Assembly: GCA_000004695.1 (NCBI GenBank)
Contig: CM000153.2
Span: 1 to 64,000 of the forward strand
Direction of reading: 5' to 3'
DNA from: Dictyostelium discoideum
Lineage: Eukaryota
Length of the DNA: 64,000 nucleotides
Shown: positions 4,095 to 44,512 of the stretch, in pieces
Layout: the number at the start of each line of letters is the position of its first letter
Numbering within the stretch: the stretch's first letter is position 1
Notes under the pieces: model-generated
Told to the model about the DNA's origin: nothing
Databases searched by the model: none
What the model saw: only the letters and a program-made list of their open reading frames with translations
Program-made: the position numbers and the translations under genes

Positions 4095-5084
4095 AAAATT
4101 AAATTTAATTTAAAATTAATTAAATTTAATTACAACGGGAGAAAACCCCTTTAAACAAAACAATAAAATAAATTATTATTATTTTCTGAATTGTATGTGT
4201 CATAACAAAATGTTGAAACAAAACTATATTCTGAATTATTATTATTTATTTTTGAATTATTGTTTAGTTGTGTTTAGTGAGTTTATTATATAAAATGAAA
4301 CAATTTATTAAAATGAATTAAGTTAGTAATAATTAATATTGAATTATCAATTCAATATTAATAGTTATTTTTAAATGTTCTGTTTAGAACATTTCATAAA
4401 ATTAAATAAATATTAGTATTAACAAGATATTTTTTTGAGATCTTGTTACACATAAAAGTAAATATACAGATAATTAAAAGTAAGGTCGTTATGAAACTAA
4501 ACCGAAAATCAGAATTTTTATTGTTTTTTTAAATTTTAATTTAATTTAATTTAATTTAATTTAATTTTTTATTTTTCAACTGAAAAAATAAAAAATTAAA
4601 AAATAAAAATTAAAATTAAATCAAATATTTTTACATGGAGATGCGCGAATTTGTTACGTTGTTGAGCTCATACTAACTTTAAATTAATTTAGTTTTGAGT
4701 CTCTAACAGTAAAACTATTATTAATCTAAGAAATTTCGTTTACCATTCTTAGATTAATAATAGTTTTATATTATTTATATTTATATTATTTAATTTTTTT
4801 TTTATTTTTTTTAATTTTAATTTTTTTTTGTTGGTTATACACAACAAATTCAAAATGTGGTGTCCCTTTGTTAAGTGGAAATTTTTATATGGCAAAAAAA
4901 AAGAATTTTCTTTTACGTCTATGTTTTAAACAACTAAAACCAGTTTATACCAAAATAAAATAAAAAATTAATATTTAACAGTGGACCTATCAGTGAAAAA
5001 TTGAATTAATTCTGAATAAATAAAGTTGTTTTGAAAAAGATCGAGTTACCAGGAGGAAGTTGCACAGCAAAGAAAAATGCACCT

Positions 5085-5300
5085 TTAAAGCAAATTTAAA
5101 GAAAAGTTGATTTAAATTGGATTTAAATTGAATTTAAAGCCGCGTTTAAAAAATTCATTTTTAAGGTAATTTTTAAGGTAATTTTTAAGATATTTAAAAA
5201 TGCCTTTAAAATTTGCTTTAAAATAATTTTTTAAGCAATTTTAAAGGTGATTTTAAAGGTGATTTTAAAGGTGATTTTTAAGGTAATTTTTAAGATAATT
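5085..5300 (-). repeat. copy B (inverted orientation) of the element terminus seen at 2566-2760, plus additional GGTGATTTTAAAGG and TAATTTTTAAGG sub-repeats
   Basis: The reverse complement of 5090-5200 matches 2600-2705 almost base-for-base: ...AAAATGAATTTTTTAA(A)CGCGGCTTTAAATTCAATTTAAATCCAATTTAAATCAA... The copy ends CTTTAAAGGTG before diverging. Confidence 0.6.
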
Positions 5301-5497
5301 TTTAAGATATTTAAAAATACCTTTAAAATTTATTTTAAATTAATTTTAAATAGGATTTAAAGTAGATTTAAAGTAGATTTAAAGTGAATTTAAATTTCCT
5401 TTAAACATAAATTTAAGGTTTTTAATAAAAAAGATCTAATTTTAGAACAAAAAAATGGGGATAAAATATTCTATCATTTTTAAATTTTCATCAAAGC

Positions 5498-5570
5498 AAT
5501 CAAATGGTGTAATGGTTGATGAGACTACCCTTTGATAGAGGGTCGGGGGATCGAATCCCTTTTGGTAATT
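5498..5570 (+). other. tRNA-like fragment
   Basis: It contains a B-box/T-arm-like GGGGGATCGAATCCC, a perfect anticodon-type stem-loop ACCCT-TTGATAG-AGGGT, and a D-loop-like TGGTGTAATGGTTGA. I could not fold a complete cloverleaf: there is no acceptor stem and the variable region is only 1 nt. It is therefore a pseudogene, fragment or SINE-like sequence. It lies among the element copies and next to an N gap. Confidence 0.25.
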
Positions 5571-5675
5571 TTTGAAAAAATTAAAAAAAAAATTTTAAAA
5601 AATTTATCCGTTAAATAACGGCTTCGAACTCAGGACCTCGCTTTTAAAGCGATTAAAAAGGTAATTTTAAAGGTA

Positions 5676-5775
5676 NNNNNNNNNNNNNNNNNNNNNNNNN
5701 NNNNNNNNNNNNNNNNNNNNNNNNNNNNNNNNNNNNNNNNNNNNNNNNNNNNNNNNNNNNNNNNNNNNNNNNNNN
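5676..5775. other. assembly gap (run of N)
   Basis: 100 n characters. The flanks are repeat copies, which is consistent with an unresolved repeat. Confidence 0.99.
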
Positions 5776-5799
5776 CCCCCCAAAACCTTTTGTCTTTTT

Positions 5800-5935
5800 A
5801 AGGTGATTTTAAAGTAACCTTAAAAATTACCTTTAAAATTACCTTTAAAATTGCTTTAATTCAGGACTTTAAAGCAAATTTAAATTTAATTTAAAGCGAA
5901 TTTAAAGGTGGTTTTTTCTTCGCTGTGTGGGTTGG
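5800..5935 (+). repeat. copy C (direct orientation) of the element terminus, ending CTTTAAAGGTGGTTTTTTCTTCGCTGTGTGGGTTGG
   Basis: Matches 2690-2745 closely: (TACCTTTAAAATTACC) units, then GCAAATTTAAATTTAATTTAAAGCGAATTTAAAGGTGGTTTTTTCTTCGCTGTGT. Confidence 0.6.
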
Positions 5936-5939
5936 AAAA

Positions 5940-7020
5940 AAGTTTTTTTTTTTTTTTTAAAATGTATTATTTAAAACAAAAATTTTATATAATATTAAAC
6001 AATATTTGTTATGACAATTGTGGAATTAAATTTAGTATGTAGTTATAGAGAAATAAAGAAAATATAAAAAAAATGAACTTCGAAAAAAAAGGAGCTTCAA
6101 AAAAAAAAAACTATATATAAAATAAATCCTTTATTTTAGCCCCAGTATTTCTGATTTTTTTTGTAAATCATTCTTTTATTTTATTTATTTTTTTTATATA
6201 TATTTTTTTTTTTAATTGTTAATAAAAAAAAAAAAAAAAAAAAAAAAATAATATGGCCAGTGAAAAATTTTTCGCGAAAAGATTGATCTTTTCAGGGAAA
6301 ACTCGATCTTTTTCAAAATAACTTTATTTATTCAAGAATTAATTCAATTATTCACTGATAGTTTCTAAATTGTGGGTATTTTGTTAAAAAAAAAAAATAA
6401 AAAAATTTGCTGGTTTGGATTAATTTTTTTTATTTTTTTATTGGACCTTTCTGTGAATAATTGAATTAATTCTGAACAAAAAAAGTTATTTTGAAAAAGT
6501 TCGAGTTATCCCGGAAAAGATAAATCTTTTGGCGAAAAATTTTTCATTTTTCATATTATTTTTTTTTTTTAATTTTTTTCATTTATTCACAATTAAAATA
6601 AAAATTATAATAAATAAATAAATAAAATAAATAGTATGATTGACAAAAAAAAATCAAAAATACCGGGGCTCAAATAAAGGATATATTTTTTATATGTAGT
6701 TTTTTTTTTTTTGAAGTTCCTTTTTTTTTTTCGAAGTTCATTTTTTTTTTATTTCCTTTATTTCTCTATAAATACAACCAAATTTAATTCTACGATAGGT
6801 CTTAACAAATATTGTTTAATATTATTTAAAATTTTTGTTTTAAATGTGTTTTATTAAAAAAAAAAAAAAAAAAACATATGAAAAGTGAAAAATTTTTCAA
6901 AAAAAAATAAACTTTTTTTGAAATAACTGAATTTATTCCGGGATAACTCGATCTTTTTCAAAATAACTTTATTTATTCAGAATTAATTCAATTATCCACT
7001 GAAAGGTCCATTTTAAAAAA
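5940..7020. mobile_element. ~1.1 kb imperfect palindromic (foldback) non-coding element built from inverted ~70-bp core repeats (GGACCTATCAGTGAATAATTGAATTAATTCTGAA...GATCGAGTTA)
   Basis: 5945-6150 is the reverse complement of 6660-6840. Examples are AACAATATTTGTTATGACAATTGTGGAATTAAATTTAGT versus ...AAATTTAATTCTACGATAGGTCTTAACAAATATTGTT, and GAACTTCGAAAAAAAAGGAGCTTCAAAAA versus TTTGAAGTTCC...TTCGAAGTTC. The core repeats at 6290-6365 and 6945-7012 are inverted relative to 6441-6512. Further core copies lie at 4985-5060 and 8812-8915. There is no ORF. Confidence 0.55.
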
Positions 7021-7639
7021 ATGCCACAATTTGAATTTGTTTTGAACATTTTTAATTTTTTTATTTTTTTATTTTTATCGGTTTTTTTTAACTTGTCACA
7101 CTTAAACAAATAAAAATCAACATATAAACCAAAAACAATACAACATCAACATATGAATCATCAATAACTAATCCACTACCATATGTAGAAAGCTTCAAAG
7201 AAGAAAAGATAAAACGGATTAACAATTTGGTTTAATGGTTTCCATAAACATCAAACAACTATAGAAATTCAAGTGGTTTTCAAGTGATAAATCCCATCCG
7301 AAATGAAAAAGCAGCATCTATTGGTAGATAGCATCCACTTATTTGGTCGATAATATTAGTTCAACATTGGATATAAAAAGAGATAAGTTTTAGTATATAG
7401 TTTTTTATTTTAAGGGGACAGGCCCCATTTTCAAAAAATTACGGGGAACCTATGACCCTGTGTACACTGAAGAAGAACAATAACAAAAAAGAAAAAGAAA
7501 TAAAAGTCGAAGAAAAAGAAGAGGAGGGAAAAGAAAAACAAGAAAAGATAAGTACTAAAAGTTTTTGCTCAATCCAAAGAATGTGTTTCCAATAGCGTAT
7601 TCGCACAGTTATCACCAACACAATCAACAGCAACCAACA

Positions 7640-7915
<276 letters not shown>

Positions 7916-8516
7916 AGTCAAGATCCATCAGCAATATCAAAAAACCTTAAAAATAACAACCAACAAATTCAGTCATAAATCAATTCAACAAAACCTAATA
8001 ACATTATCAACAACGACCCAATCGATGATTACAGTTTTAATCAATGAAAGAAATGATTTTTCGAAGGATTGTATCTGCAATAGACTTTAAATCTACCAAA
8101 AGGGTTTTGATAGATAGTAGTATGCTATTTGGTTTATTAATATATTATACAATGTCGGTTATACGTTGGTCGTAGTTATATATGTAATTGTAATGGTAAA
8201 GTGGATAAGTCTCACGCTAAATCGATTAGTAGTGGTAATAGTGAATTATCAACCTCCATTGGTCCATAAACTACTCATGTTAAATCGTCAACCACTAATG
8301 CCTCAACTACTCATGCTACATCAACTACAACTGGTGCTCTGGCATTAAATCAAGTGGCAGTGATGGTAAACTTCAAATACAGGCCACACTCTTTGTCAAC
8401 TACTGGTTTTGAAATTTAAAGAAGAAACAGACTCAATCCCAATTTTCTTTTTGGGAAATTAAAAAATAAAATATTGGATCCTTTAATTTTTAAATTCCAA
8501 AATTTTCAAAATCTAT

Positions 8517-8547
<31 letters not shown>

Positions 8548-8699
8548 GAAAAAAATAGATAATTTAGAAAACTAACTTTTTGTTTTTATTTGTTTTTTTT
8601 TTTTTTTTATATCTAGTAATAAGAAAATGACTCATTATTGATCCATTAAAAATGACTCTATTATTATTATTGATCCATATGTTTTTTTTTTTTTTTAAA

Positions 8700-8920
8700 T
8701 GAATGATTTAAAACAAAACTTTTAAATAGTGTTAAACAATTTTGTAGAATTAAATTTAGTAAGTAATTATGAGAAATAAAGAATAAATCAACTTGATCTT
8801 TTTTTTTTTTGAGAATTAACTCAATTATTCACCGAAAGGTCAATTCCCGAATAAATCGATCTTTTTAAAAATAATTTTTTCTTTTCAAAATTAACTCAAT
8901 TATTCATTGAAAGGTTTAAT
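8700..8920. repeat. additional fragments of the 5940-7020 element family
   Basis: 8700-8770 resembles 5945-6060 (...AAAACAAAACTTTTAAATAGTGTTAAACAATTTTGTAGAATTAAATTTAGTAAGTAATTATGAGAAATAAAG...). 8812-8915 carries two copies of the core GAATTAACTCAATTATTCA(C/T)(C/T)GAAAGGT. Confidence 0.55.
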
Positions 8921-9045
8921 GTTTAAAAGTTTTGTTTGAATCATGCATTTTATTAAAAAAAAAAACAATCAGAAATGAAAATTTTTTCAAAAATTTTTTA
9001 GAAAAAGATTCAATGAGTTATTATAATAATAAAAATACACTTTTA

Positions 9046-11927
<2,882 letters not shown>

Positions 11928-15564: not shown

Positions 15565-16751
15565 TTAATTAATTAATTTCAATTGATCTGAAATTGTATT
15601 ATATTTAAAATTCCAATAATTTTTATGAATTGGATCAATTGTTTCTGATAATAATTTACAAATCTATATTTTTTTTTAAAGAAAAAAAAAAAAAAAATAT
15701 GTTAATGTTAAATAAATAATTAAAAATAATTAAAAATTAATTAAAAATAAAATAATTACATTTAAAGAATTTTCTAAAGAAATTTTAGTATTTTGTTCTT
15801 GATAAATATCTAAAATGATAGAGTTAACATGAGAACAACCAATATACTTTGATTTCATTTCCAATAGTATATCCAAAAGGGAAGGATAAATAGTGGAAAT
15901 CTTTTGACCTTTGAATAAACCTTTAAGATAACTCCAAGGTGATTCATTATTTGGACTATGACGTATATGATTGAAAGCAAATTCAACTTCACGTTCGATC
16001 AAAGACAAAGGGAAAGGAGATGGATTTAAATTTGAAATGACGAAAAAACGGTGATTCCAAACTGAATTATTACGATGATCCAACGATAATAATTTATCGA
16101 CCATTGCCAATTCACCATTCCAATCACGATAGGTTTTTAATAACCATTGTCTATGTGACCATGCATGATAGTTTTTAGCATCCTCCAATAATACACCACT
16201 GAGGAATTCTTTCTCTTTATTATCACTACCAATATATTTTTCAACTATAAAACGTCTATGATTCCAAATTTGATAATTCTTTGGATCTGTTTCTCCCATA
16301 TCATTCAATAAGTTCATCTCTTGTTGAATATCATATTCAATAGTTTCATCTTGTTCAATGGCTTTCAATACTTCCCTTCTATAATACCATATGGTATAAT
16401 TTGATGGATTCTCTTGAATAACTTCCTCTAATAAATCTAATACTCTAAGTGATTTCTCTTTAGATTTTAATATTGCTCTAAAATAATTCATTTTATCCTT
16501 AACTAATTATGAATTAAATAAATGTATATATATATTATCAAATAAAAAATAAATTAAAACTATTAATTAATTTTAATGAAAATATATTAAATTTAAATAT
16601 ATATATATATATATTTAAACTTACAAACTTCTGAATATAAAATTGGGCAAATTGGATGTGGTCCATCATCTTGTGCCAAAGGTTTTACATCACTCCATTC
16701 TGGTCTTTTTGAAAATGGCACATAACCATCATCCTCTTCACTACTTGACAT
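15565..16751 (-). CDS. fntA: protein farnesyltransferase / geranylgeranyltransferase type-1 alpha subunit (about 319 aa). Exons 16751..16629, 16497..15760 and 15663..15565.
   Basis: PPTA tetratricopeptide-like repeats NYTIWYYRR, KNYQIWNHRR, KNYHAWSHRQW and RNNSVWNHRFF. The N-terminus PFSKRPEWSDVKPLAQDDGPHPICPILYSE and the C-terminal exon ...ICKLLSETIDPIHKNYWNF both align with human FNTA. Two introns, with donors GTTTGTAAG and GTAATT and acceptors TTAAG and TATAG. Exon lengths are 123, 738 and 99 nt, all in phase 0. Confidence 0.85.
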
Positions 16752-17135
16752 TTTTATGTTTTTAATTTGGAAAAATAATAAAAAAAATAATAAAAAAATA
16801 ATTAAAAAATGAAAAAAAAAAAAAAAAATTTTTTTTTTATTTTTTTTTATTTTTTAAAATTCCAAATTGAATGGTTTATTAATTTTTTTTTTTTTTAATG
16901 GTCCTTAGAGTTGATGGTATTGACATTATTTCTTGGTAATATTAAGTGGTAATTCTAAACTTCCACCTGTACTATTTTTTTTTTTTTTTATAAAATCTTT
17001 TATGTTTTTTTTTTTTTTTTTATATTATATTATCTTGTTTGTTTTTTTTTTTTGTTTTTTTATATTATTATAAAATAAAATTTGGCCGTATTCCTCACTC
17101 ACGCGACTATTCCATTTTTAGAAACTCATTATTTT

Positions 17136-17226
17136 AGAAAATCAAATTTAAGATTTTCTAAAAATAGAATTGAAGTTATTAAATTATCAAATTTAATAAC
17201 TTCAATTCTATTTTTAGAAAATTTAT
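17136..17226. other. perfect 30-bp inverted repeat hairpin with clustered TTTTTAGAAA motifs
   Basis: TTCTAAAAATAGAATTGAAGTTATTAAATT-ATCAA-ATTTAATAACTTCAATTCTATTTTTAGAA. Five copies of the (A)TTTTAGAA(A) motif lie between 17110 and 17270. A GC-rich GGCCGTATTCCTCACTCACGCGAC precedes it. Confidence 0.6.
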
Positions 17227-17606
17227 AAATTTAGAATGTTTTCTATTCTAATAATTCCCTATTTTTTAGAATATTTCATTTTAAATATTTAAAATATATT
17301 TAATTATTAATAAAAAATATATTAAATAATAATAATTTCCGTTTTAATTTTGGTTGTTCAGTTTAATAAATATAAAAGATACAAAAAAGATATTAAAAGA
17401 TTATAAACACTAAAAAAAAAAAATATAAACAAGATACAGAAAAGATAAGGTTTAAGATATTGAATATATAAAAAAATAAAAAAAAAGTTACAAATTCAAC
17501 CATTTAACTAAATAATATTAAATTATCTATTTATTTATATAAAGAATAATTGATTTTCTCATTCTTATCACCTTTATGTATTGAAACTTTGTTACATTAG
17601 TATCTT

Positions 17607-17718
17607 TTATTTTTTATTCGAATCTGATAAATCAATTGATATAAAATGATCATCATTATTTTGTTGTTCTTGTTGGTGTTCATATTGTTGTTCATGTTGT
17701 TGTTCATGTTGTTGTTCA

Positions 17719-17785
<67 letters not shown>

Positions 17786-18759
17786 GCTGTTGCTGTTGAT
17801 GTTGATGTTGGGGTAATTGTTGAAATTGTTGTTGTTGTGGTTGTTGCAATTGTTGATGATTATATTGTTCACAGTTAGATTGAGCTGATTTTCTATTTGG
17901 CTCTTGTTTTGAATTTATTGATTGTTCTTTTTGATTTTCAGGTAAATGTTGATCTTCAGTTTGAAATCCATCTACACATATAAAAAGTGAAGATTTAATT
18001 TTATCTTTTTCATGGTTACTATTACTACAACTATGATGATTATCTTGTCCAAATACTGCAGTGGTTGTTATTGTATTATTATTATCTATATTATTACTGC
18101 TAATGATATCAGATTCTAATTGTTCCAAGAGTGATCTTTGTTTTCTTGCAAAATGCATAACCAAAATCTCTGATGTAAACCATAATATTTCACAAATTGA
18201 TTGAAATATATCTTTTGCTTTTATTTCTGATCCTGAATCGTCCCAAACTTCAGAATTCATTAAAACTAATGGAATAAAATCAAATAAAAATAATACTAAA
18301 CTTAATAAAAAGAACTATTTAAAAAGTAAATAAAATATTACCATAATTGTTTTTTTTTTTTTTTTTTTTTTTTTTTGGAAAACTTACAATAAATAATAAC
18401 ATTGAAATTCTTTTATAACTTGAAAAAAATCCAAAAATCATAGTAACAATATCACAACCAAATGAAATATACAGGAACCATGGTAATATTTTATAATAAA
18501 ATGAATTTATAAAAATTATAATAATCTAATAAAAAATTAATTAATTTACTATTTTTTTATTTATTTTTATTTTTAATTTTTTTTTATTTAAAAAAAATAT
18601 AATAAATACCATTTTAATTATTATCGTTAATTGTAAGGAAACTGCACATTTCCCAATTTTATCTACCTTTTGACCATTGAAAAAATTTATAATATAGAAA
18701 ATCATTGATTCCAGTTTAGATAATTATTTATTTGCTAAAAAAAAAAAAAAAAAAAAAAG

Positions 18760-18805
<46 letters not shown>

Positions 18806-18927
18806 TCAAATAAATTTTCGATTATTTATTTATAAACTTTTTTTTTTTTTTTTGGTAATAAACAAAATTTATAATTAAAAAAAAATATAATCGAATTAAA
18901 CATTTTTAAAAAAAAAAATTAAAAATG

Positions 18928-18964
<37 letters not shown>

Positions 18965-19070
18965 AAAAACAAACCATTTCCATTTTTAAAAGTTTACTAA
19001 AATGACAATCTTCCAATTTACTTTCTCCTCTTGTGGTTATTAACTTTTTGATTTCCATATATTAATATGA
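17607..19070 (-). CDS. hypothetical multi-exon membrane protein with a C-terminal poly-Gln tail. Tentative exons about 19070..18990, 18715..18600, 18505..18405 and 18334..17607.
   Basis: The last exon reads FFLLSLVLFLFDFIPLVLMNSEVWDD...(Q)n...HEQQHEQQ*. Upstream exons were found by eye: ...LPWFLYISFGCDIVTMIFGFFSSYKRISMLLFI|GTAAGT, MIFYIINFFNGQKVDKIGKCAVSLQLTIIIKM|GTATTT, and MEIKKLITTRGESKLEDCHFSKLLKMEM|GTTTGT. No family was recognised. Exon boundaries are approximate. Confidence 0.35.
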
Positions 19071-19489
19071 GGTAGGGGTAAAAAAAAAAAAATAAAAAAA
19101 AAAAAAAGATGAAAAATCTACACACACAAATAAAAAATTACAAATTAACAATTTCTTATAAATAAATAAAAATAGTAGTGATAACTACCATTATTTTTAT
19201 TTATTTTTTTTTATTATTATTATTTTTTTTTTTTTTTTTTATTTAATTATTTTTATTATTATTATTATTATTTTTATTATTATTATTTTTATTATTATTA
19301 TTATTATTTTTATTATTATTATTATTATTAAATTATATCGCTATTTCTTTATTCAAATGTAAATTGCCTTTTATAACTTGGTAATAAAATTATGATATAA
19401 TTTTTAAACCATGTGATTATATTATTTTGAAAGCATATAAATATATATAATTATATGTTCTTGTATATCTAGATATATTTATGGTTGTA

Positions 19490-20030
19490 CATCAAAACTT
19501 TTTCCATGATGTAGAAGTAGAAGAAGAAGAGGGATGTTGATTATTATTGCTGTTGTCTATTATATTTCTATTTGAATCTGAAGATAAACTTTTAATAGAA
19601 GAATTTCTAACCATTTCCAAACCCTTATCTGTAGTTTAAATTAATAAATAAATAATTTTTTTTAAAATAAAAAAAAATAATAATTAATCAATTAGATATA
19701 TTCTGTGAAATCAAAAAAAAAAAAAAAAAAAAAAGAAAAATAAAAAAAAAAAAAAAAAAAAAAATAGACTACTTACTAAAAATCAATTCACCAGAGTTTA
19801 AATAAACTAATAGGCCTGTTCTTATTTTATCATTTTTAATTTTATTGGCTGGTCTTAATCTGTTAAGAAAACCTATTTCATTAAAATTTATTTTTTTTAT
19901 TTTATTTTATTTTATTTTTCTACATACAATGAAAATCCTGTAAAATGTCTTAGACAAGCGATTGAGGTGGATACGACAGCAGCATCTGCCACAAATGAAA
20001 CAATACTTGAAAGTAACATATTTCTTTTTA
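19490..20030 (-). CDS. possible small multi-exon gene encoding a short hydrophobic protein (MLLSSIVSFVADAAVVSTSIACLRHFTGFSLY..., then ...RPANKIKNDKIRTGLLVYLNSGELIF|GTAAGT, then a terminal exon)
   Basis: Short in-frame exon candidates with GT donors and AG acceptors were found by eye. The phases are ambiguous and no homology was recognised. Confidence 0.15.
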
Positions 20031-20487
20031 TATTTGGTGTAAGGAATGAAAAAAAAAAAAAAAAAAATTAGATAAAAAAAAAAAAAAGTGAACCCATGGG
20101 GGACTTTTTTTTTGAAGGAAAAATAAAAAAAAAATATTAAAATAATAAAAAAGTTTTATTTTATTTGGCAAGAAAAAAAAAGTACTATGAAAAAAAATAA
20201 AAATAAAATAAAAATAAAATAAAAAAATAAAAAAATTCAATGTAAACAAAATAAATAAAATTATAATTGATTCAATCTTTGCATAATTTAAATCAAAACA
20301 AATTATTTTCCTTTTATGGTTATTAATATTTTCATAAAACATTAATTATTCTAATATTAAAATATATTTTTTTTTTTTCATTTTTTTTTTTTTTTCATTT
20401 TTTTTTTTTTTTTTTTTTTTTTATATTATTTATTTCCATTAATTAAAATAAGGATTTCAATGATTAAAATAAAAAAAATAATAAAGA

Positions 20488-28009: not shown

Positions 28010-31000
28010 ATGGTCATACAAGAAATAATATGTATACATGAGCATATAAAGGAACCTCTTCAAATGATATTATTGGATTGCAGGGCAACACTAAATCTGG
28101 TGATGAGAGAAGAAGCATTTCAAAAAGAATATGAAAAGTTATATTCAGATAGTAACAAGTTCCTATCGATTGTAAATACATTCCTTAGTGTTCATGTGTT
28201 TCCAGATGGTGATGTTAGATTAATGCCATCATCAGATGATAAAGAGATTAACATTGCAGAATACTCTGAAACTAAAAAGTTTTATCTTCAATGTTTTATT
28301 GCGGCATTTAGTAAATTTCGTAAACATACAGCAAAACTTATCAATACAATCAAATCAATGGATATGCAATATTTAAAACAAAATCAAACCATCTTCTCTT
28401 TATTAAAACATAAATTAAACTATATAATGTTTAGTGTTTTAGATTCTGCTAGATATATTATTAAAGTTTTAAGATCAAATTCTTTAAGTGAATTAAATTT
28501 TACTCATTTCAATGATAGTGTTTGTATTTTTTTATTTTTATTTTCTTAAAAAAAAATTAAAAAAATTATAGAAAATTTCATACTAATATTTTTTTTATTT
28601 TTTTTTTTATTACTATTTCTTTAAAGAATATTAATAATGTATCAACAGATTTTTTAATAAAAATGAAACAATTAACAGAATATTGTTGTGATCCACCAAG
28701 TGGATTGAATAGATATGATTTTGGTGACTTTAAAAAGAAGTATATGGATTCATTTACAACATTTTCAGAGTTGATGAATGAATGTTTATTTGATATTTCA
28801 AAGCAATCAAAATCGATCATTGAGACTTCCAATGGTTTATTAGAGGATTTAGGTATACTTTTCGAATTAACACTCAGAAGTGCTTCAATGGGAAATGGTA
28901 TTGGTTCATTTCACTTGGATATGCTCTCAAAAAGATCCGATATTGAAAAATGGATCGTTGATTTAGTTGAAAAGGTAAAATTCATTTTACCACTCATTAT
29001 CCAATGTTTTAAGAAATTACCAAGTCCAAATCCTTTAACAAATTATTTACCTTTAATTGGTGAAGAATATCAACAAAAACAACAACTACAACTACAACAA
29101 CAGTCCGGTATTACTATTGATACCGATGACTCAAGTAGTGTAACTTCAACTTCTGAAAGTAATTATTCTTCTGCTCTTCTCACCACTGGTGATCATAGTA
29201 ACCGTAGTAGTATCATAAGTAACGGTGGTGCAAACTTACCAACCAGTCTAAGTAATTTAGAAACTTTTTTAGATACTACTCCAAAATTAACAACTACAAC
29301 AACCACAACTACAACTACTACAACTACTACAACTACAACAACACCACAATACTTAAATGTAAATTCTAATTCATCTCATTCTTCATTACAACCATCACCA
29401 CAACCTTTTAATATCAATAATAATTCACCAAATAATAATCCAAATAATAATCCAAATAATAATAATAATAATCCAAATAATAATAATAATCCAAATAATA
29501 TTAGTAGTCATAAAAGACAAAATTCAGATTTACCAATAATTGTATTATCTTTGGATGATGATGATGATGATGATCAAGATACTCCAGTAATTTGGTCAAT
29601 GTCAGTATCTGAGGTTTCATCTGATCCATTTAATAAAGAGAAACCACAACAAAACCAACAACAATCTCCAACTTTGACCGATGATAAAAAGAAGAAATGG
29701 TTTAGAAATCCATTTAAAAAGGATTCACCAAGTACATCACCAACACCAACACCATTAAATCAACAAAACATAAAAATTCCACCAATTCAAACCTCCTCAA
29801 TATCAGTTTCAACCTCACCAAATTCAAACTCTTCAAATTCATCACCACTTTTATCACCAAAACTTCAAGGTAATTCAACCTTTACCTCCAACTCTTCATC
29901 TTCAATTAATAATGAAATTTCAATTCCATTACCAAATGTTTTAATAAATCCATTTAGTAATTCAAATAATAACAATGCTAAATTGATTGAGATTTTAGAG
30001 AATATCATTGACGAGTTTGACCATACTCAAGAAGATGAGATTCTATTTGATTCAATCAAAAAGACTATACCTATTGGACTTCAAGGAAAGGTTGAAGATA
30101 AATCCATTGAACTATTCGATACCACCACTTCATCGTTACTCAAAGATTACATTGTTGAATATGATGGTCATAAATCAAAGAGATTCACCTCAAAGCTATT
30201 GGTAGAATTTGATCATAATGAAAGACATATCGCTCACTATCACCAAATACATCAACAAGAACATTACAATTATACTGCCAATATACCAGAGTTTGGTGGT
30301 AATATTATATTATCAATTAAAAAAGAACCTGAACAAACATTAAATTCTACTCCTTCAACAATAACTAATAGCACTAGTAATAGTAATCTCTCTGCAATCA
30401 CTTCACCTACGACATCAATGACTACAAGTCGTCAACATCATCATCAACATCATAATCACCACCATCATAATCATCATCATCATCATCATAGAGTTTTAAT
30501 AAGAATGAAAAATAGTACTGAACGTTTAATGATTAAATCCTCAAGTAACAAAGAATCAGATTTAATTAAAGCTGTCATTAGTTATCTTAAAGTAATTGTA
30601 AAGATATCTTCATCATCACTCAAATTGAATAGATCTGAACAATTGATTCAACAATTACTCCAATATGAACATCAAAATCTAAAGAGACAATATTCCTTTT
30701 TACTATTATTCCAAGGTGAAGGTCAATCAAATGAAAATCAACTTTTATCCAATAATAACGTTAGTAGAGAGTTTATTGATTTCTATAAATTCTTAGGAAA
30801 AACTGTTCCTTTAAAAAATTGGAAGAGATATTCTGGTGATATCTATAATACCAATAATAATAATAATAACTCCTCCTATGAACAAGATTCTATCGTTTAC
30901 AATCAAGTTAATGATATTGAAGTTGTCTTTCAAGTTACTAATCTTTTAGAGTCTCTAGAAAAACGAAAAGAACTCTATTCAAAATCTCAAGTTATTATCA

Positions 31001-31415
31001 TTTACCATGAAGGTTCAAAACCATTTAATCAACAAAATTTTAATTTTTCAAATAATCGTAAGTAAAAAAAAAAAGAAAAAAAAAAAAATTAATTCCAAAC
31101 AAAAATAAAAAACTAATCTTTAATTTTATTTTTTTTAAAAATATAGAAATTTTAATTATTATTAAAAAAGTTAAAGTTGATGATGGATCAATGATTAATT
31201 ATAAAATTGGAACAATATATAATAATAACATTTCACCATTTGGGCCAATGATACCAGAAGGTTCAGTTTTCAAAAAAGATTCTTTATTCCTTCATTATTT
31301 TATAACAAAGTGTATCAATGCTCAAAATGCTTACTTATCTTGTCCAATATTTAATCAATCCTCTATTTCTAAAAGAGAAATGGCATTAAATGAAATTGTA
31401 AACAAAAAGAAATAG
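28010..31415 (+). CDS. hypothetical large low-complexity protein (about 1070 aa; poly-Thr, poly-Asn and His-rich tracts). Exons 28010..28519, 28627..31057, and a tentative 31147..31415.
   Basis: Intron 1 runs AGT|GTTTGT ... TTTAAAG with both exons in phase 0. The apparent stop of the long ORF (CGT AAG TAA at 31057-31065) overlaps a perfect GTAAGT donor. An 89-bp AT-rich intron ending TATAG would join in-frame to the otherwise unexplained 74-codon ORF 31191-31415. No conserved domain was recognised. Confidence 0.55.
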
Positions 31416-34225: not shown

Positions 34226-35390
34226 TTATTTTAAGGTTGTTGTTACAATATTTTTTAGTAAAATTAATCTTGTCCTTTTCATTTTATCTGAGAACGAAGG
34301 TGAATAATATGAAGCTTTTTCAGCATTAATTAATTTTGTGAGAAGGTAATCTAAAAATACATTATCCTTTTTCCAAATTTTTTGAGGTGGGAAAAAGGGT
34401 GATGATGTTGAAACACCATCTTTGTAGGTGATTGAAACAGAGTATTTAGTAATTTCATTTGAATTAATTTTTTCTAATGGTTGAATAACAACGAAAACAT
34501 CTATTTTTTTTAAAAAATTTTAAGTGTTAATAAAATTAAAAATAAAAATATAAATAATTTTGTTTTAGGAAAAAAAAAAAAAAAAAAACTTACGATTAAA
34601 TTCAGATTTTAACATATTTGGTTTAAAAGGTGGTGAACAATTTATATCTTGAAAAATTATAACAATAATATCATTACCAATATGACGTTTTCTTTCGAGT
34701 TGTTGTTGGTCATTTGGATAGAAAGGTAAATATGTACTAACATGGAACATTATTGATACATTGAATTTCTTAGTTTCACTTATGGAAACTTCTTTAGTTT
34801 TAAAAACTGAATGAGTACCAGTTGTATCATCTAAAAATAAATAAATTTATATTAAAAAATTTTAGTTAGTTGTTATTAATTACAAATTTTTGGTTTATAA
34901 TTGTTTGTTTTCAATTGAAAATATTTACTTTTTACATCTAAACCACCTTTAAATTTATCAAAACCTTTTAATTTAACTTTTTCACCAATGAATTCTAAAA
35001 ACTCTTTAAATTCAGGACTTTCATCTTTATTTGAAAAGAAATCATTTTCATTGGTTTGATTATTCTTTCTATAGAGGATACCAAATTTATAATCTTTAGT
35101 CATTTGAGCGGTTTCCCAATATTGAAGCATCTTTCTAGTTTCAGAGTTATTTGGAATTTTTTGGAATTGTAATTCAGGATAATCAGAGAGATAGAAAGAT
35201 TTAATTGTATTGATAAGTTCATGTGGTGATGATTTACCAGAGGATAAATAAAATCTATCTTCACCATCTTTAGTTCTAATAATCGTTTTAAATTTTCTTT
35301 CTGTTGATTCAATATTTGGTATTGGAGTAATTGGTTGTAATGTTAATTGTGGTGATTGTTGTATTTGTTGTTGTTGTTGTTGTTGTTGAG

Positions 35391-35429
<39 letters not shown>

Positions 35430-37566
35430 GAGTTAATTGTTGTAATGCTTGAGTTGAGTGTGCTTGTTGAGGTAAATTTAAAAATGATGATGAAGGTGTT
35501 GTTGTTGATGATGATGATGATGATGATGGGAGGGTATGTACAGATAAATTTGGACAACTTGCACTAACTTCAGTAATATATGAGTTTTCTTTTTTCTTTT
35601 TCTTTAATTTTCTATAGGAAGGAGTTCTTTCAGCCTCTCTTTTTATACTAATAACAACTGGACCAAGTTCATCTTGGTTATTTGCTAAATAGTTTTTATG
35701 TCTATCTTTCATAAAACTTTCAAAATAATGTGGGAATTCATTTTCAATCTCTTCAATGCATAATGATTGATTATTGTTGTTGTTGTTATTATTTGAATCT
35801 TCTTGCATTTCATTTTCTTTTTTCCAACCGGGACAACTCATAATTAATTGTAATATCCTACTGTTATATTCTTCGTTATTAGTTTCAATTATTGGTTTAG
35901 TTGTCTGTTGTTCTTCTTTGGTTGGATTGTTTTGTTGATTGATATTATTTTCAATCTTTAATAATGATACATTAATAGAATTTGTATTTGGAAGTGGAGT
36001 ATTAAAGAATTTCTTTTTACTTGGTCTTGTTCCTGCAAATAATTTTTGACTATTTATTTCAATTTTGGTTTGTTCTATAGCAACATCTTCAAATTCAGTT
36101 TGAAAAATAATATTATCTAATTTTAATTCTGCTACAGTTGGTCTTCTTATTAATCTTCTTTCTAATGATTTCTTTAAATCTTCTTGATCTTGATCTTCAT
36201 CAATGTTGTTAATCTCTTCTGTAGGTAGTATTGTTGTTGTTGTTGTTGTTGGTGGTAGTGGTGGTGGTGATGATAGATTTTCACCATTAATTAATGTTAA
36301 CATATTTGGATCTGATATTGATTTTCTTTCTAACTTTTTAGAACTTGTTGGTGATTGCTGTTGCTGTTGTTGTTGTTGTTGTTGTAATGGTGGTTGTTGA
36401 GATGAGGTTGTTGTATTTATTGAATTACTATTACAAATTGGAGAAGGAGCATGTCCTTTTTGAGTTATTGGTAAACCATAGATTTCATTTGTTGATAATT
36501 CTGGTAAATTCATTGATGGACTATTATTTGCACTACCATTGTTATCTTCTTCTTTACTTTTTGATCTTTGATGACTAGAACTACTAGTACTAAATATTTT
36601 TAATTTACCTTTTTTATAAATTTGTTTTTTAGGTGGTTCATCATCAGATGAAGTATCAAAATCTGAATCGTCAGAGGAATTGAATTCTAATAAATTACTA
36701 TTATTACCACCACCAATGAAACTTGATCTATTATTTTTGCCATTACCATTTCCACTAATTGAAAAGAAAGAATCAATCTTTGATTTAAATGATTCTCCTT
36801 CTTTCTTTCTTAATGATCCACCTGTTGGTGTATTTGATCCATTACCACTAAAATTATTATTATTATTATTATTATTGTTGTTGTTGTTGAGAGTTAATTG
36901 ATGAGTTGAGCCACTGCAACTATTTATACTTGAACTTGATGAATTTAAACTTGGTGATTCAGCACCTGATCCTCCAACATTACCATTGCTATTTAAATCA
37001 TTATCATCCAAAAGATTACTATTGCTAGTTGACTTTTTGAAAAAGTTTGAAACTGATTTCATTTTATTTGGTTTTTTTGGTGAAAGTTCACCACCTGAAT
37101 TTACTGTTGCATATTTCTTTTTTGGTACAAGATCACCTGCTGATAAATCAAAACTAGTTACTGATAATGTTTTCTTTGGTTTTTGTTTTTCTGAAACAAA
37201 TGATGGTGTCGATGTATTTGATGAATTTAATGATGGTGTTGATGAATTTGAATTTGGATTTGAATTTGGATTTGAATTTGGATTTGAATTTGAATTTGAA
37301 TTTAAAGAAGAGATAGCTGTTCCTGATGAAGATGAAGAAAGGAATTTTCTATCTGTAATCAATGATGATAAGGTTGTTGGTGCTGTTGTATGTGGTGGTG
37401 GTTGCAAAATTGTTTTATTTGTTGATACTGTATTTGTTGGTTCTATTGTTGATTGTTGATTAATATTACTTGAGTCTCCAATTTCTAAACTGTCTAATTT
37501 CTCTCCTAAAATACCAGCTAATTCTTGAGATTTAGATAATGATACATCGCTTTGGCTCCTTTTCAT
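34226..37566 (-). CDS. RapGAP-domain protein with a long Ser/Asn/Gln-rich N-terminal region (about 1064 aa). Exons 37566..34884, 34830..34594 and 34500..34226.
   Basis: RapGAP catalytic-domain hallmarks are split over three exons. These are [32 protein letters not shown]...[36 protein letters not shown] (the Asn-thumb region), and HVFVVIQP...[23 protein letters not shown]. Donors are T|GTAATT and C|GTAAGT, and acceptors are TTTTTAG and AAATAG. The first intron is only 53 bp. Confidence 0.78.
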
Positions 37567-38802: not shown

Positions 38803-38922
38803 TCAAAGATTTGTGTGGCTTGACACAAATAAATTATTGTTTCTTTCATTCCCATCCAAATAATAATTGTAACCTCCATTTAAATTTCCACTATAAAATT
38901 GATTAAAATTATTATTTAAAAA

Positions 38923-38982
<60 letters not shown>

Positions 38983-38988
38983 TAAAAA

Positions 38989-39036
<48 letters not shown>

Positions 39037-41666
39037 TATTTTATTATTATTATTATTATTAAAATTATTATTAAAATTATTATTATTAAAATTATTATTT
39101 AAATAATTATTTAATAAATTATTATTATCATATTGATTAAAATTATTATTATTAATATTATTTTGATTATCATAAATAAAATCATCATTATCAATTATTG
39201 GATAAGATATTGAAGATGATGATAAATTTAATTCACCAAGTTCAGTTTCATTTACTTCATCTCTAAATTTTGAGTAATCATTAAAATTCTTAAATTTATT
39301 TGATATGGAGGGTAAGTTTGTCGGTGAAAAGAAATTGAAATTTGAAAAAATATTATTACCATTTGGAATATTATTAATGTTATTATTTATATCATAATTT
39401 AGATAGTGTTGATAGTTATTATTTGCTTTTTTAATTAATTCAGTTTGAATAATTGGTGAGTCTTGATACTCTAATATTAATTTTGTTCTATAGTATTGTG
39501 ATCCACTACCACCATCCCTATCATTACCTAAAATTGAAGAGGAGGAAGAGGAATTGGATGATAATTTTCTACGAATGAAATAAATCGCTACTGCACCACC
39601 ATAAAATGAGGCTGTTATTATAACTAATGATATTATTATTTTTGTAGAGGTTTTCATTCTTTTTAATTCTTTTTTAGAGAAACAATTTGTACCATCTCCA
39701 CCACAAATACCACATAAATCAATGGTTTTTGTTGAATTTAGAACTCCATCACATCCAATTAAACAAGTATCATTATTACCACCACATACTCCACATAAAT
39801 CAAATTTTATCGTTGAGTTTACAATTCCATCACAACCAATAAAACATGTACTATTATCACCACCACAAATGCCACAAACATCATATATTAATGTTGAGTT
39901 TACAATTCCATCACAAGCAATTAAACAGCTATCATTATTACCACCACAAACACCACATAAATCAAAAATAACTGTTGAATTTACAATACCATCACAACCA
40001 ATTAAACAGCTATCATTTTTACCACCACATACACCACATAAATCAAATTTCTTTTTACTTTCGAATATTCCATCACATCCGATATTAGATTCACAGAGAG
40101 TACCATTTCCGCCACATACATTACATTGATCTCTAACTTCACCAAATTCACATGCTGTTGATAATTTTACCAATTGAGAAATACATTGTATTATAGATGG
40201 AGTATCATCATTACAATTCAATGATGTTGGGAAACATGTTCCAGAAAATCCCATTTTACCATTTAAGCTAATTAGGCCTGATAAACCACCATTACCTTTG
40301 TTACCACTAAAATATTGATTACATTGATTTAGCTCAACTTTGGAGATTACCGACATTAATGGTAAGGATACACCTCCTTGACCACCTGACCCAAATCCAC
40401 CTTTACCACCGTTACCACCATTGCCACCCTGACCACCCAATGGCATGTCAATTGAAAAGTTATCATTAATGAATGGTTTACCACCTTCACCTCCAGAGTA
40501 TCCAAGTTCTGGTTGAGTTGAATTTCCACCATCACCTCCATTACCAGAGATGATATTACAAAATTGGATAATAGTACCATTAGATTTAAATATATAAATA
40601 CCAATTGAACTACCACCATCACCTCCATTCTTTCCAGCTCTACCACCACAACCACCGCCACCTCCTCCACCACCTGATCCACCAAAAACTAAACATTGAT
40701 TATTAAATGATCCGCCACCACCACCTCCTCCACCACCACCTTTACCATTTTTACCATCAGTTGCTTTTATTTTAATCGATAGTAAACCTTTATATGTTAA
40801 TTGAACTTTTGTTAATTTTGAATTTACACCATTTTCACCATTATCTCCATCAATACCAAATGATAAAGGATTTACAGTGAATGAGTCTGAAGCTATTCCC
40901 TGACCACCAACCCCTCCCCCATTGGTACCATTTAAACCATTTTCACCATATTCTCTTCCCCGTCCTGGTCTACCACCTTTACCACCCGCTGATAAATAAT
41001 TTTTTTGAGAATAATGATTGTCACAAATACCAGATGATCCTCCATTTCCAGGTTTTGGAATTTTGCAACCTCCACAGTCTATATCATCATTTCCAAAAGT
41101 GACTGCACCATCACCTTCACAGCCACTATTACCATCTTTACCATTTTTACCATTATATTTATTAGAACTCTGAAATGATTGTAAAGTTAAACCATTTGCA
41201 CCATCACCAGATTCAATTCTTAAAAATCTTAATGTTACATTTTCACTTTTTGAAATTAATATACCATAGGATGATGGTGTCTCTTCAAATGCCATTGACG
41301 ATTGATCAGAAATTGAAGGTGAATCATTTGAATAAATTGAAAGATGTGATAATACAATGTTTCTATTATTACCAGTTATATTAAATGCAATTGGTTTTTT
41401 ACATTTAATAATAGTTCCAGATGTAAAAGGGATTTGATCAATATATTCTCTTTTCCAATTTGGTAAACCATAGTAACCTCCAAATATTGAAATCGGATTA
41501 TTATCAATTGAAATTGTTGATTTTAATATATATTCTCCTTTTGATAGTATTATTGATATTTTTTCATTTTTTAATTTTAATGATTTTAAATATGAAATTG
41601 AATATTCTAAATTTTTAAATGGGCTTTTCTATAATATTAAAAAAGAAATTATATTAAAATTAATAC

Positions 41667-41700
<34 letters not shown>

Positions 41701-42072
41701 TAATAATTAAAATAATAATAATAAAAAATAATAATAATAATTAAAAAAACTTACAATTGTACCAAAATTTGAATCCAATCCATTATTTGTATCCACAAAA
41801 ATAAATTTTTCACTTTTTTCATCTCCAATCAATTGAAGATTTTGATTATTAAATGAATTTTCAAATTCATTATCAATTTGTTCAGAAATTGAAAATAATG
41901 AATTTATTTCACTTTTAATAACAATTATTAATAAAAATAAAAAGATTAAAATCTTATCTGAATTGGATTTATTAATAATAAAAAATAAAAATAATCTGTT
42001 AATATTAATATTAATAAAAAAAAAATTAAAAAAAAAATAAAAAAATTAAATTCACATACATTTAGATTTCAT
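38803..42072 (-). CDS. predicted type I membrane glycoprotein with a Gly-rich region and 5 tandem ~25-aa cysteine repeats (CDGIVNSTxxFDLCGVCGGNNDSCLIG), one transmembrane helix and an Asn-rich cytoplasmic tail (about 1027 aa). Exons 42072..42056 (tentative), 41995..41755 and 41628..38803.
   Basis: The 830-aa ORF extends in-frame upstream to a TATAG acceptor at 41629-41633. Upstream are an exon ending ACAATT|GTAAGT and a 17-nt first exon ATGAAATCTAAATGTAT|GTGAAT. Together they give a signal-peptide-like N-terminus, MKSKCILFLFFII.... The transmembrane helix is IIISLVIITASFYGGAVAIYFI. The Cys repeats are obvious in the translation. The family is not named with confidence; it resembles Dictyostelium extracellular Cys-repeat proteins. 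Confidence 0.6.
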
Positions 42073-42515
42073 CTTATTTTTAAAGATATCAAAAAATTAA
42101 AATAATAATAATTGTAAATATTGTAATTTTTTATACAATCAAAGTGAAAAAAAAAAAAAAAAAAAAAAAATAAATAAATAAATAAAAAAAAGAAATAAAA
42201 AAAAAATTAAATTAAAATTAATTTGTAAAACAAATTTGAAAAAATATATATATATACAAATAGTGTTAACGCTGTTTATGTATATTAATAAAAGTGTGTT
42301 GTTTTTTTTTTTTTTTTCTAATTTAAAATAAATTTATTTTTAATTTAAAAAAAAAAAAAAAAAGTTTGATTTGTAAAATGTCAGTTGGATGTGTTGCTAT
42401 AATTTATATAATAACACATAATAAATAAAATTTTATTGACTATTAAATATTTAATAATAGGCTTTGTTTTTTGTTTTTTTTTTTTTTTTTTTTTTTGGAA
42501 AGTGGAATGATGATT

Positions 42516-43570
42516 CTAATTATTTTGAGTATTTTTTGATGGCGATATTGAAGTTGATGAAGTGGTAGTTTGTTGATAATTATTTAAAAATGATCTTGGA
42601 GAACTTGGTAATGGGAGTGATTGTTGTTGTTGTTGTAGTTGTTGTTGCTGTTGATCAATTGGATTATCAATTATATTTAATCTTTGAATTAAATCGAATC
42701 TAGCTCTAACTTCATCAAAACTATTTGGATTAAAATTTGAGATTTCATTAAGTTGAGATTTTAATTTTTTAATTACTAAAGGAAACATCATATAGGTTGC
42801 ATTCATTTGAATCCAAAGGTGATCCAATAGATTGAAAATGAGGAAATACAATTCCTCAAAAGCATGATCATTATGTCTAGACATTGAACAAAGCATAGCC
42901 ATATAGGAGGAAGACCAAAAACTACTATACCAAGGTTGTTGAAGTGAATCCTCAGAGATTTGAAAAACCTCAAAGATCAAATTTGAAATGTTTATACCAG
43001 CCACAGCAAAAGGATAATCTCTATCCTGAGCTAGAATCTCCTGTACCCAATCATTATGATGTTGAACCAAATGAATTAGATTCAATAGACCCATTATACC
43101 CATACCACGAAAATCTCTAGTTGGATCATCACTTTGAAAGCCAAATTTCTTCCATAGGGGTGACTTTTTTTGAAACTCTTGCTCTGGATATAGCAAACTC
43201 CATAAATGTTTTAAGTATTCCTCATGATCGGGATTTGTTGATTCATAGATTGTCGATTTCTTTTGAAATAATATCTTTATAGTTTGTGATTGTTTAGCAG
43301 TAACTTTCTTTGATCTATCTATATGTGATCCTAATAACTCTAAAAGTTCTAAAGATTCTTCTTGGGTTTTTAATATGTACATTGAAGTCTCTTTATTACT
43401 CCAGGTTAATAAAATTTTACCACCAATTTCTTGATTATTATTATTATTATTATTATTATTTTCAATATTTTGTTGATTATTAATTTGATTAATTGAAGGT
43501 GTTGTTGAATATTTTCTTAATTTTTCTTGGTTTATATTTGTATTTACTGTTGTTGATGATGTTGGTGTGG

Positions 43571-43644
<74 letters not shown>

Positions 43645-44512
43645 GCTGTATTATTATTTTGTATTGTAATTGATAATGATGAATTATCTTTTTCTTTATC
43701 TTTTTCTTTATTATCTTTAAATCTTTCAATAAAGTTTGAAATTGATTTCGGAGGAGAGAATCTTTCACCAAATATTGTAGGATCTGATGTTGTCCTTCTT
43801 AATGGTGATATTCCTAAACTCCATGTATTTTGTTTAACTCTTTCAAATAATGATGGTTTATTACCATTATTATTATTATTGCTATTATTATTATTATTAT
43901 TATTATTATCGAAATTTGTTTTTACAGAGAATAATTGATGAATTGATTTTGAAGATATAACTTTTTGAAATTCAAATATTGGTTCGATTGATGGATCTGA
44001 TACAGTCTCCAATTCATTTACAATTAATATTCTACTCTCATTACTCTCTTCTATTGGTATTTTCGTTAAATCTGTAAAGTGTCTACATAAATAAAAAGTA
44101 ATCTTACTAGTTTCATCAATGTCCATTAAAATTGTATCATCTCCATTTAAAACATAAAATCTATCACCTTGTAATCTTAATTCTTCTAATTCTAATTTTA
44201 ACTATATCATAATAATTTTTTTTAAAAAAAAAAAAAAAAAAATAAAAAAAAGTATGTTAATTTTTTGATTTTTTTTGATCAATTATTTATTTTTTTTGAA
44301 AAAAAAAATAATTTATAAAAATTGATTTTTTATGTACTTACTATATTTAATTGTTTATTTAATTCAATTAGTCTATTATCATGTTCATCATTATGTTCAT
44401 TATTTTCATTGGACATTAATCTAAAATCCTCTTTTTGAATTAGGTCCCTTTGTTTTTCAATTTCATTTTTTAGAATTTCTTTTCTTTCTCTTCTTATTCT
44501 ATATCTTTCCAT
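42516..44512 (-). CDS. ELMO-domain-containing protein (about 618 aa). Exons 44512..44342 and 44201..42516.
   Basis: The ELMO/CED-12 domain signature is WKKFGFQSDDPTRDFRGMGIMGLLNLIHLV...DYPFAVAGINIS...HLWIQ. The upstream coiled-coil exon MERYRIRRERKEIL...LNKQLNI|GTAAGT joins in-frame at the acceptor GATATAG|TTAAAATTAGAATTAGAAGAA across a 140-bp intron. It also has poly-Thr and poly-Asn tracts. Confidence 0.7.

Follow-up and report, generated by a model that had tools for sequence, protein, structure and literature searches.

An old, modular inverted repeat in a transposon nest downstream of abcB in Dictyostelium discoideum, probably a decayed foldback- or MITE-like element

The intergenic DNA downstream of abcB in Dictyostelium discoideum AX4 contains a palindrome of ~1.2 kb that is present in independent assemblies, is old, differs in structure between isolates of the species, and has no coding capacity. 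This structure is probably a decayed, non-coding, modular foldback- or MITE-like element, a reading that is favored because the palindrome consists of modular inverted repeats, has a shorter derivative bounded by terminal inverted repeats (TIRs), contains a variably placed module that is itself bounded by TIRs, and lies in a transposon nest. As read from the alignments, a small transposon-like repeat forms its arms, in two inverted copies that are old and have diverged. The window analyzed here is the whole stretch of 64,000 nucleotides from which the palindrome comes (positions 1 to 64,000 of contig CM000153.2, GenBank assembly GCA_000004695.1, forward strand), and coordinates refer to this window unless another sequence is named.

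The G+C content of the window lies between 18 and 30% across most 1-kb windows, and its first bases are a 100-N gap. In a protein search with a chimeric query, the N-terminal exons of the gene at 9046–11927 (minus strand) were 100% identical to an ABC transporter B family protein [Dictyostelium discoideum AX4], and the ORF at 403–993, which formed part of the same query, gave a 99% match to DDB_G0282919. The corresponding annotation, DDB_G0282919_TE, is Tdd-4 (PMC12405889). Both matches place the palindrome in intergenic DNA downstream of abcB in D. discoideum AX4, beside copies of DNA transposons. Tdd-4 copies flank the palindrome on both sides. The copy at ~100–2730, to which the ORF at 403–993 (DDB_G0282919_TE) belongs, ends at ~2726 in the same terminus as the insert found in the palindrome. 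In the AX4-like assembly GCA_054883475.1, the locus occupies 5,529,147–5,552,026 of a 5,576,411-bp chromosome record and, thus, the palindrome is located ~31 kb from the end of that record. Other features of the window include an (AGT)n/(AAT)n microsatellite of ~340 bp (7598–7941) that generates spurious ORFs of 137–160 aa on both strands, one of which is called as a gene in the annotation of the AX4-like assembly (L002), two large ORFs, one on each strand (28663–31065, plus; 34876–37566, minus), that carry Rap_GAP domains and are probably paralogs, and the ELMO / ADAMTS_CR_3 gene pair (38803–44126), which is syntenic with D. citrinum.

Each arm of the palindrome is composed of four parts, namely a T-run, a module of ~205 bp termed V, an AT-rich linker, and a module of ~117 bp termed C. 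These parts and the sequences associated with them are arranged as follows:

4974–5062, minus strand: truncated C copy 'd', outer end of the left palindrome arm; 92–95% identical to other cores, nhmmer E = 1.7e-19
5063–5930, no strand assigned: Tdd-4-type DNA transposon remnant in the left arm, separate from the foldback family; Tdd-4-type terminus; encloses the 100-N gap at 5676–5775
5943–6361, plus strand: inner left arm, with T-run 5943–5958, V 5959–6165, AT-rich linker L 6166–6248, and C copy 'a' 6249–6365
6362–6446, no strand assigned: central unpaired loop of ~85 bp, placed by arm alignment and fold prediction
6447–6871, minus strand: inner right arm, with C copy 'b' 6441–6560, linker, V 6646–6850, and A-run 6848–6866
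6867–7015, plus strand: C copy 'c', outer end of the right arm, in the orientation opposite to that arm; ends in GGTCCA, nhmmer E = 3.6e-28
8680–8967, plus strand: short derivative of ~290 bp, with ~45-bp TIRs of the V-end type, a partial V, and C fragments 8790–8842 and 8845–8917

Local alignment of 5900–6407 with 6408–6920 pairs 5943–6361 with the reverse complement of 6447–6871 over 430 columns, with 86.7% identity and 16 gap columns; the identity rises to 90.1% when only ungapped columns are counted. In self-blastn, the inverted repeat of the region reaches 82% over 962 columns (893 bits), and loose scoring returned hundreds of AT-rich low-complexity matches, of which the top dozen alone are real. 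The V copies of the left and right arms of AX4 are 88.6% identical, and nhmmer places V at 5960–6163 and C at 6248–6365 in the left arm. A previous sequence-only reading of this DNA had described arms of ~200 bp separated by inverted cores of ~70 bp. Both the inverted repeat and the inverted cores are present, but they form a single pair of ~420-bp arms with 86.7% identity, in which the cores at 6290–6365 and 6441–6512 are included instead of being separate repeats. An arm identity below 70%, which that reading had taken as a sign against a foldback, was not found, the arms being 87% identical.

The capacity of the unit to fold into a long hairpin, which had been proposed from its sequence, is borne out by fold prediction. 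The predicted RNA fold of 5943–6871 is one long hairpin of −384.1 kcal/mol, compared with −143.7 ± 6.2 kcal/mol for shuffled sequences (z = −38.8), and the predicted DNA fold of the same stretch reaches −293.3 kcal/mol (z = −35.4). The proposed absence of ORFs holds as well, since no ORF longer than 48 aa was found inside the palindrome, where the longest frames are low-complexity stretches of 30–48 aa. Moreover, neither an Rfam scan nor ARAGORN gave any match in the palindrome region.

The C module has six copies in AX4, namely 'a', 'b', 'c', 'd', and the fragments at 8790–8842 and 8845–8917. Core copies are recognized by nhmmer with E-values from 1e-13 to 1e-32. In self-blastn, 6944–7017 matches 5048–4974 (92%), 6300–6361 matches 5047–4987 (95%), 6935–7007 matches 8843–8915 (83.6%), and the longer stretch 6820–7022 matches the reverse complement of 6432–6616 (75.8%). 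The module also bears an imperfect terminal inverted repeat of its own, 16–21 bp long and recognized by eye, TGGCCAGTGAAAAATT ... AATTATTCACTGATAGGTCCA.

When 5063–5934 is removed, the alignment of the arms runs on through C 'd', which mirrors C 'c', and the outer parts reach a score of 120, compared with a maximum of 32 in 500 shuffles. This mirroring indicates that the original structure was a palindrome of ~1.2 kb spanning 4974–7015, larger than the ~1.1-kb unit at 5940–7020 delimited by the sequence-only reading. Likewise, the stretch at 4985–5060, which had been considered a further dispersed copy, is, judging from the same outer-part score, the outermost part of the left arm, moved away from the rest of it. 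The repeated unit is ~570 bp long and has the order C–V–linker–C, with the two terminal C modules inverted relative to each other, and two copies of it stand head to head.

On this alignment, a Tdd-4-type transposon later entered the left arm and split off its outer end, 4974–5062. On either side of the 100-N gap, the insert (5063–5930) is made of 11–12-bp subrepeats resembling TTTAAAGGTGAT, with the two sides inverted relative to each other. Its left end (5058–5198) is 92% identical over 143 bp, as reverse complement, to 2589–2730, the terminus of the Tdd-4 copy at ~100–2730, and its right end is 81% identical. The same Tdd-4 terminus is scattered through three transposon-rich D. discoideum loci (L008–L010). 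Tdd-4 is a 3.8-kb Ginger2/Tdd DNA transposon that encodes an integrase-type transposase and has TIRs of ~260 bp composed of 11–12-bp subrepeats (PMC2836005), and terminal inverted repeats of this type are present in the insert. The target-site duplication of Tdd-4 is 5 bp (PMC2836005); the flanks of the insert share only GTTG (5059–5062 and 5931–5934), with the right side offset by 3 nt, as judged by eye. Two tRNA-like fragments are also found inside the Tdd-type element, at 5504–5575 and 5620–5650 (T-arm-like GGGGGATCGAATCCC; reverse-strand GGTCCTGAGTTCGAAGCC), neither of which is called by ARAGORN or Rfam.

A second, shorter element of the same type is located at 8680–8967, 1.7 kb from the large palindrome. 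Its stretches 8682–8791 and 8914–8993 are 79% and 76% identical to 5945–6068 and 6814–6903, respectively, and its termini are inverted repeats by self reverse-complement alignment. It also shares with the large element the context T-run ... A-run CA(T)ATG, and the likeness extends ~25 nt past its right end. From these similarities, it looks like an internally deleted copy. The element is found at the orthologous site in the isolates ACTFIR (L003) and ACTFIW (L005) and in a longer form in ACTFIY (L004), with different internal deletions. The ancestor probably had a larger copy at this site, which lost different internal parts in each lineage. The longer version of ACTFIY, at L004 13090–13270, comprises a TIR, a C fragment, linker, and inner V.

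Comparison with other assemblies provides further information on the palindrome and the neighboring gap. The gap-free AX4-like assembly (L002) is 99.92% identical to the window along 12000–5795, closes the N gap to ~13 bp, and contains 2.37 kb of extra sequence inside the Tdd-type element, at window ~5449–5462. Judged by this comparison, the AX4 reference is collapsed at the Tdd-type element beside the gap at 5676–5775. The extra Tdd-type sequence of this assembly (L002 ~15993–19135) includes a 444-aa ORF without a Pfam match, a weak homolog of which adjoins Tdd TIRs in one of the transposon-rich loci (L008).

The divergent isolate ACTFIW has an orthologous copy of the palindrome, whose V is 94.5% identical to the right V of AX4 and 87.2% identical to the left one. 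Given that the two V copies of AX4 are 88.6% identical to each other, the greater proximity of the ACTFIW V to the right copy indicates that the duplication predates the split of both lineages and, on these identities, that the arms of AX4 and ACTFIW have not been homogenized since then. The ACTFIW palindrome is rearranged, with an extra C outside, a single C at the center, and no loop, and the center with C 'a' found in AX4 is missing from it. A different Tdd-type end, which belongs to another subfamily (L005 19375–19509, 79–81% identical to that of AX4), is located at another position in the ACTFIW palindrome arm, in which the contig ends. The same ~1-kb palindrome was thus hit by two independent Tdd-type insertions in two lineages, which may mean that these transposons prefer this DNA, or transposon nests in general, as targets. 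ACTFIW also carries a strain-specific block of 3.8 kb (L005 14732–18537), absent from AX4, between the equivalents of window 7181 and 7022. Part of this block is shared with ACTFIR (94–98%; L003 17514–19018), where a PIF1-like helicase gene call (19511–20425) occupies the place of the palindrome beyond the shared block.

The similarity of ACTFIR to AX4 in blastn stops at window 7104, followed by a weak likeness, seen by eye, to ~7025, beside C 'c', and that of ACTFIY stops at 8869. No large palindrome was found in the 10 kb covered in each of these two isolates. The orthologous loci of D. citrinum and D. firmibasis align only up to the end of the abcB gene, with no V or C.

Searches with nhmmer profiles of V and C, together with blastn, place all V and C copies of AX4 within 4974–8967. 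No further copy appeared along the remaining 58 kb of the window, in the transposon-rich D. discoideum loci L008–L010 (66.7 kb), or in the orthologous DNA of D. citrinum (loci of 44 kb) and D. firmibasis (one locus of 22 kb), and a 24-nt core pattern had no matches in the JGI metagenomes, an expected and uninformative result. The dispersed family suggested by the sequence-only reading is real in its further core copies and putative in their dispersal. No copy was found outside this 4-kb block in the ~125 kb of D. discoideum DNA searched, a weak negative, since this sample represents ~0.4% of the 34-Mb genome and would usually miss a family of tens of copies. No convincing target-site duplication was found at the V termini, the C termini, or the ends of the Tdd-type insert; the V termini run into homopolymers of T(16–19) and A(11–19) and, thus, no such duplication is readable there. 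No empty site was recovered in loci L003, L004, L006, and L007. Moreover, V and C have nothing in common with the Tdd-4 termini, and no autonomous or transposase partner for the V and C termini was found in the loci examined.

Several known systems resemble the palindrome in part. Long snap-back arms, the hallmark of FB-type foldbacks, are present here with ~420 bp (~570 bp when extended), 87% identity, and a loop of 85 bp, and Drosophila FB and FB-like elements share arms of hundreds of bp that constitute nearly the whole element. FB elements also resemble the palindrome in their modular internal repeats, lack of coding capacity, and variable arrangement between copies or strains. However, the arms of FB elements consist of short subrepeats in tandem arrays, whereas those of the palindrome combine two unique modules, V and C, in a mosaic. 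Members of FB families are, in addition, dispersed and flanked by 9-bp duplications, whereas the palindrome type was found at two sites 1.7 kb apart and nowhere else in the ~125 kb searched, with no readable duplication. As in MITEs, both the element at 8680–8967 (~290 bp, ~45-bp TIRs) and the C module (~117 bp, 16–21-bp TIRs) are short, AT-rich, non-coding sequences bounded by TIRs of 16–45 bp. The definition of MITEs includes a high copy number and family-specific target-site duplications; here, two and six local copies, respectively, were found, without termini shared with an autonomous element, which is a weak negative in such a small sample. Tdd-4/Tdd-5 elements are physically interleaved with the palindrome in AX4 and ACTFIW, yet they are different elements with no similarity to V or C.

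The D. discoideum genome also contains thug-S and thug-T elements, reportedly described by Glockner et al. in 2001 (Genome Res 11:585). As in the case of the palindrome, thug elements are rare in this same genome and are found together with Tdd-4 in at least one annotated locus. They are stated to amount to ~0.1% of the genome (PMC5633606), and a transposon gene model elsewhere in the genome is described as holding both Tdd-4 and thugS homology (PMC3386910). According to the accounts of their small RNAs, thug-S repeats yield multicopy hairpin-derived miRNAs (PMC4894637, PMC6161686), among which the miRNA_can_D3 pair is listed at six loci on chromosomes 2, 3, and 5 (PMC4894637, S4 Table). The same source reports an annotated, intron-containing gene model for thug-S (PMC4894637), whereas the palindrome has no ORF. 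The 5p arm of miRNA_can_D3 had no match with up to three mismatches in the window or in L002, and an exact search for both arms in 10 loci also gave no matches, so that the miRNA hairpin reported from thug-S is absent from the palindrome. A candidate similarity between the start of the core, AATATGGCCAGTGAAAAATT, and the miRNA arm, AATATGGCTGCCGAAATTAAT, amounts by eye to a shared 8-mer and 13 of 21 positions, and was discarded as too weak. Among the catalogued families, thug is the obvious candidate, and the palindrome may belong to it, although the one thug-S marker compared, the miRNA pair, speaks against thug-S.

The main alternative to a foldback- or MITE-like element is a purely local palindrome that has never transposed. 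In that case, a break followed by fold-back priming, or a fork stalled near the chromosome end followed by template switching, would have produced an inverted duplicate of one piece of AT-rich intergenic DNA, and parts of this DNA would then have been recopied 1.7 kb away. Such an origin would agree with the confinement of all copies to 4974–8967 and their absence from the other D. discoideum DNA searched, with the lack of a detected target-site duplication, and with the location of the palindrome, which lies at the margin of a transposon cluster and ~31 kb from a chromosome end, such regions being prone to rearrangement; the variation of the center between isolates is also expected of unstable palindromes. 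Nevertheless, the short element at 8680–8967 has TIRs of its own to which both ends of the large element correspond, with a shared flanking context, as is typical of deletion derivatives of TIR elements. The C module, of which AX4 has six copies, is likewise bounded by a terminal inverted repeat and occupies an extra position in ACTFIW. Furthermore, the ~125 kb surveyed is such a small part of the 34-Mb genome that tens of copies could exist elsewhere. A local origin is, on balance, possible but less likely.

The very stable predicted hairpin would also suit a hairpin-RNA or miRNA-type locus that is transcribed and processed by DrnA/DrnB into small RNAs with a role in regulation or transposon silencing, by analogy with thug-S miRNAs. 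Hairpin-derived small RNAs have precedents in this genome, not only in the thug-S miRNAs (PMC4894637, PMC6161686) but also in a foldback-forming fragment of the Skipper transposon (PMC2175303). The AX4–ACTFIW identity of the palindrome, ~90–94% compared with 80–87% in the non-coding flanks, is consistent with such a function, although weakly, since the flanks are rich in microsatellites. However, the palindrome has no Rfam match and lacks the thug-S miRNA sequences, is rearranged in one D. discoideum isolate and missing from two others, has no counterpart at the orthologous site of D. citrinum and D. firmibasis, and is split by a transposon in AX4, which makes an RNA locus of this type very unlikely. 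Finally, an artefact of assembly tied to the neighboring 100-N gap might be suspected from the distance of only 170 bp between the gap and the left arm and from the collapse of the reference at this point, where L002 has 2.37 kb more. This explanation, which the sequence-only reading had itself raised against the element, is refuted: the arms differ by 13%, through both substitutions and indels, the gap-free L002 assembly reproduces the palindrome, and ACTFIW has an orthologous copy.

If the palindrome is a foldback- or MITE-like element, the V and C modules would spread, now or in the past, by cut-and-paste in trans and would at present be inert. The head-to-head pair could have arisen either through an inverted duplication or because a second copy was inserted, and the second site at 8680–8967 would represent a copy with the same termini, most of whose interior has since been lost. 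A read-through transcript of the palindrome would fold into an imperfect double-stranded RNA of ~420 bp and could enter the Dicer/RNAi pathway. A bolder proposal, according to which V and C form a low-copy foldback/MITE family that has not been catalogued and differs from thug, DDT, and Tdd, the palindrome is a preferred landing site for Tdd-type transposons, and its read-through transcripts give rise to hairpin siRNAs, is speculative and rather improbable.

The palindrome is real, and both larger and older than first described, but it is ordinary, probably debris of the transposon type in a repeat nest, in a genome whose repeats are already catalogued. Its importance is slight and lies mainly in annotation, as a low-copy inverted repeat that repeat maskers may miss, and it marks a collapse of the AX4 reference beside the gap. 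It also provides a small natural example of palindrome evolution, with unhomogenized arms of 87% identity, a remodeled center, and two entries of Tdd-type transposons in two lineages. If small-RNA reads map to it, the palindrome would be one more transposon-derived source of hairpin siRNAs in Dictyostelium, which is a known phenomenon.
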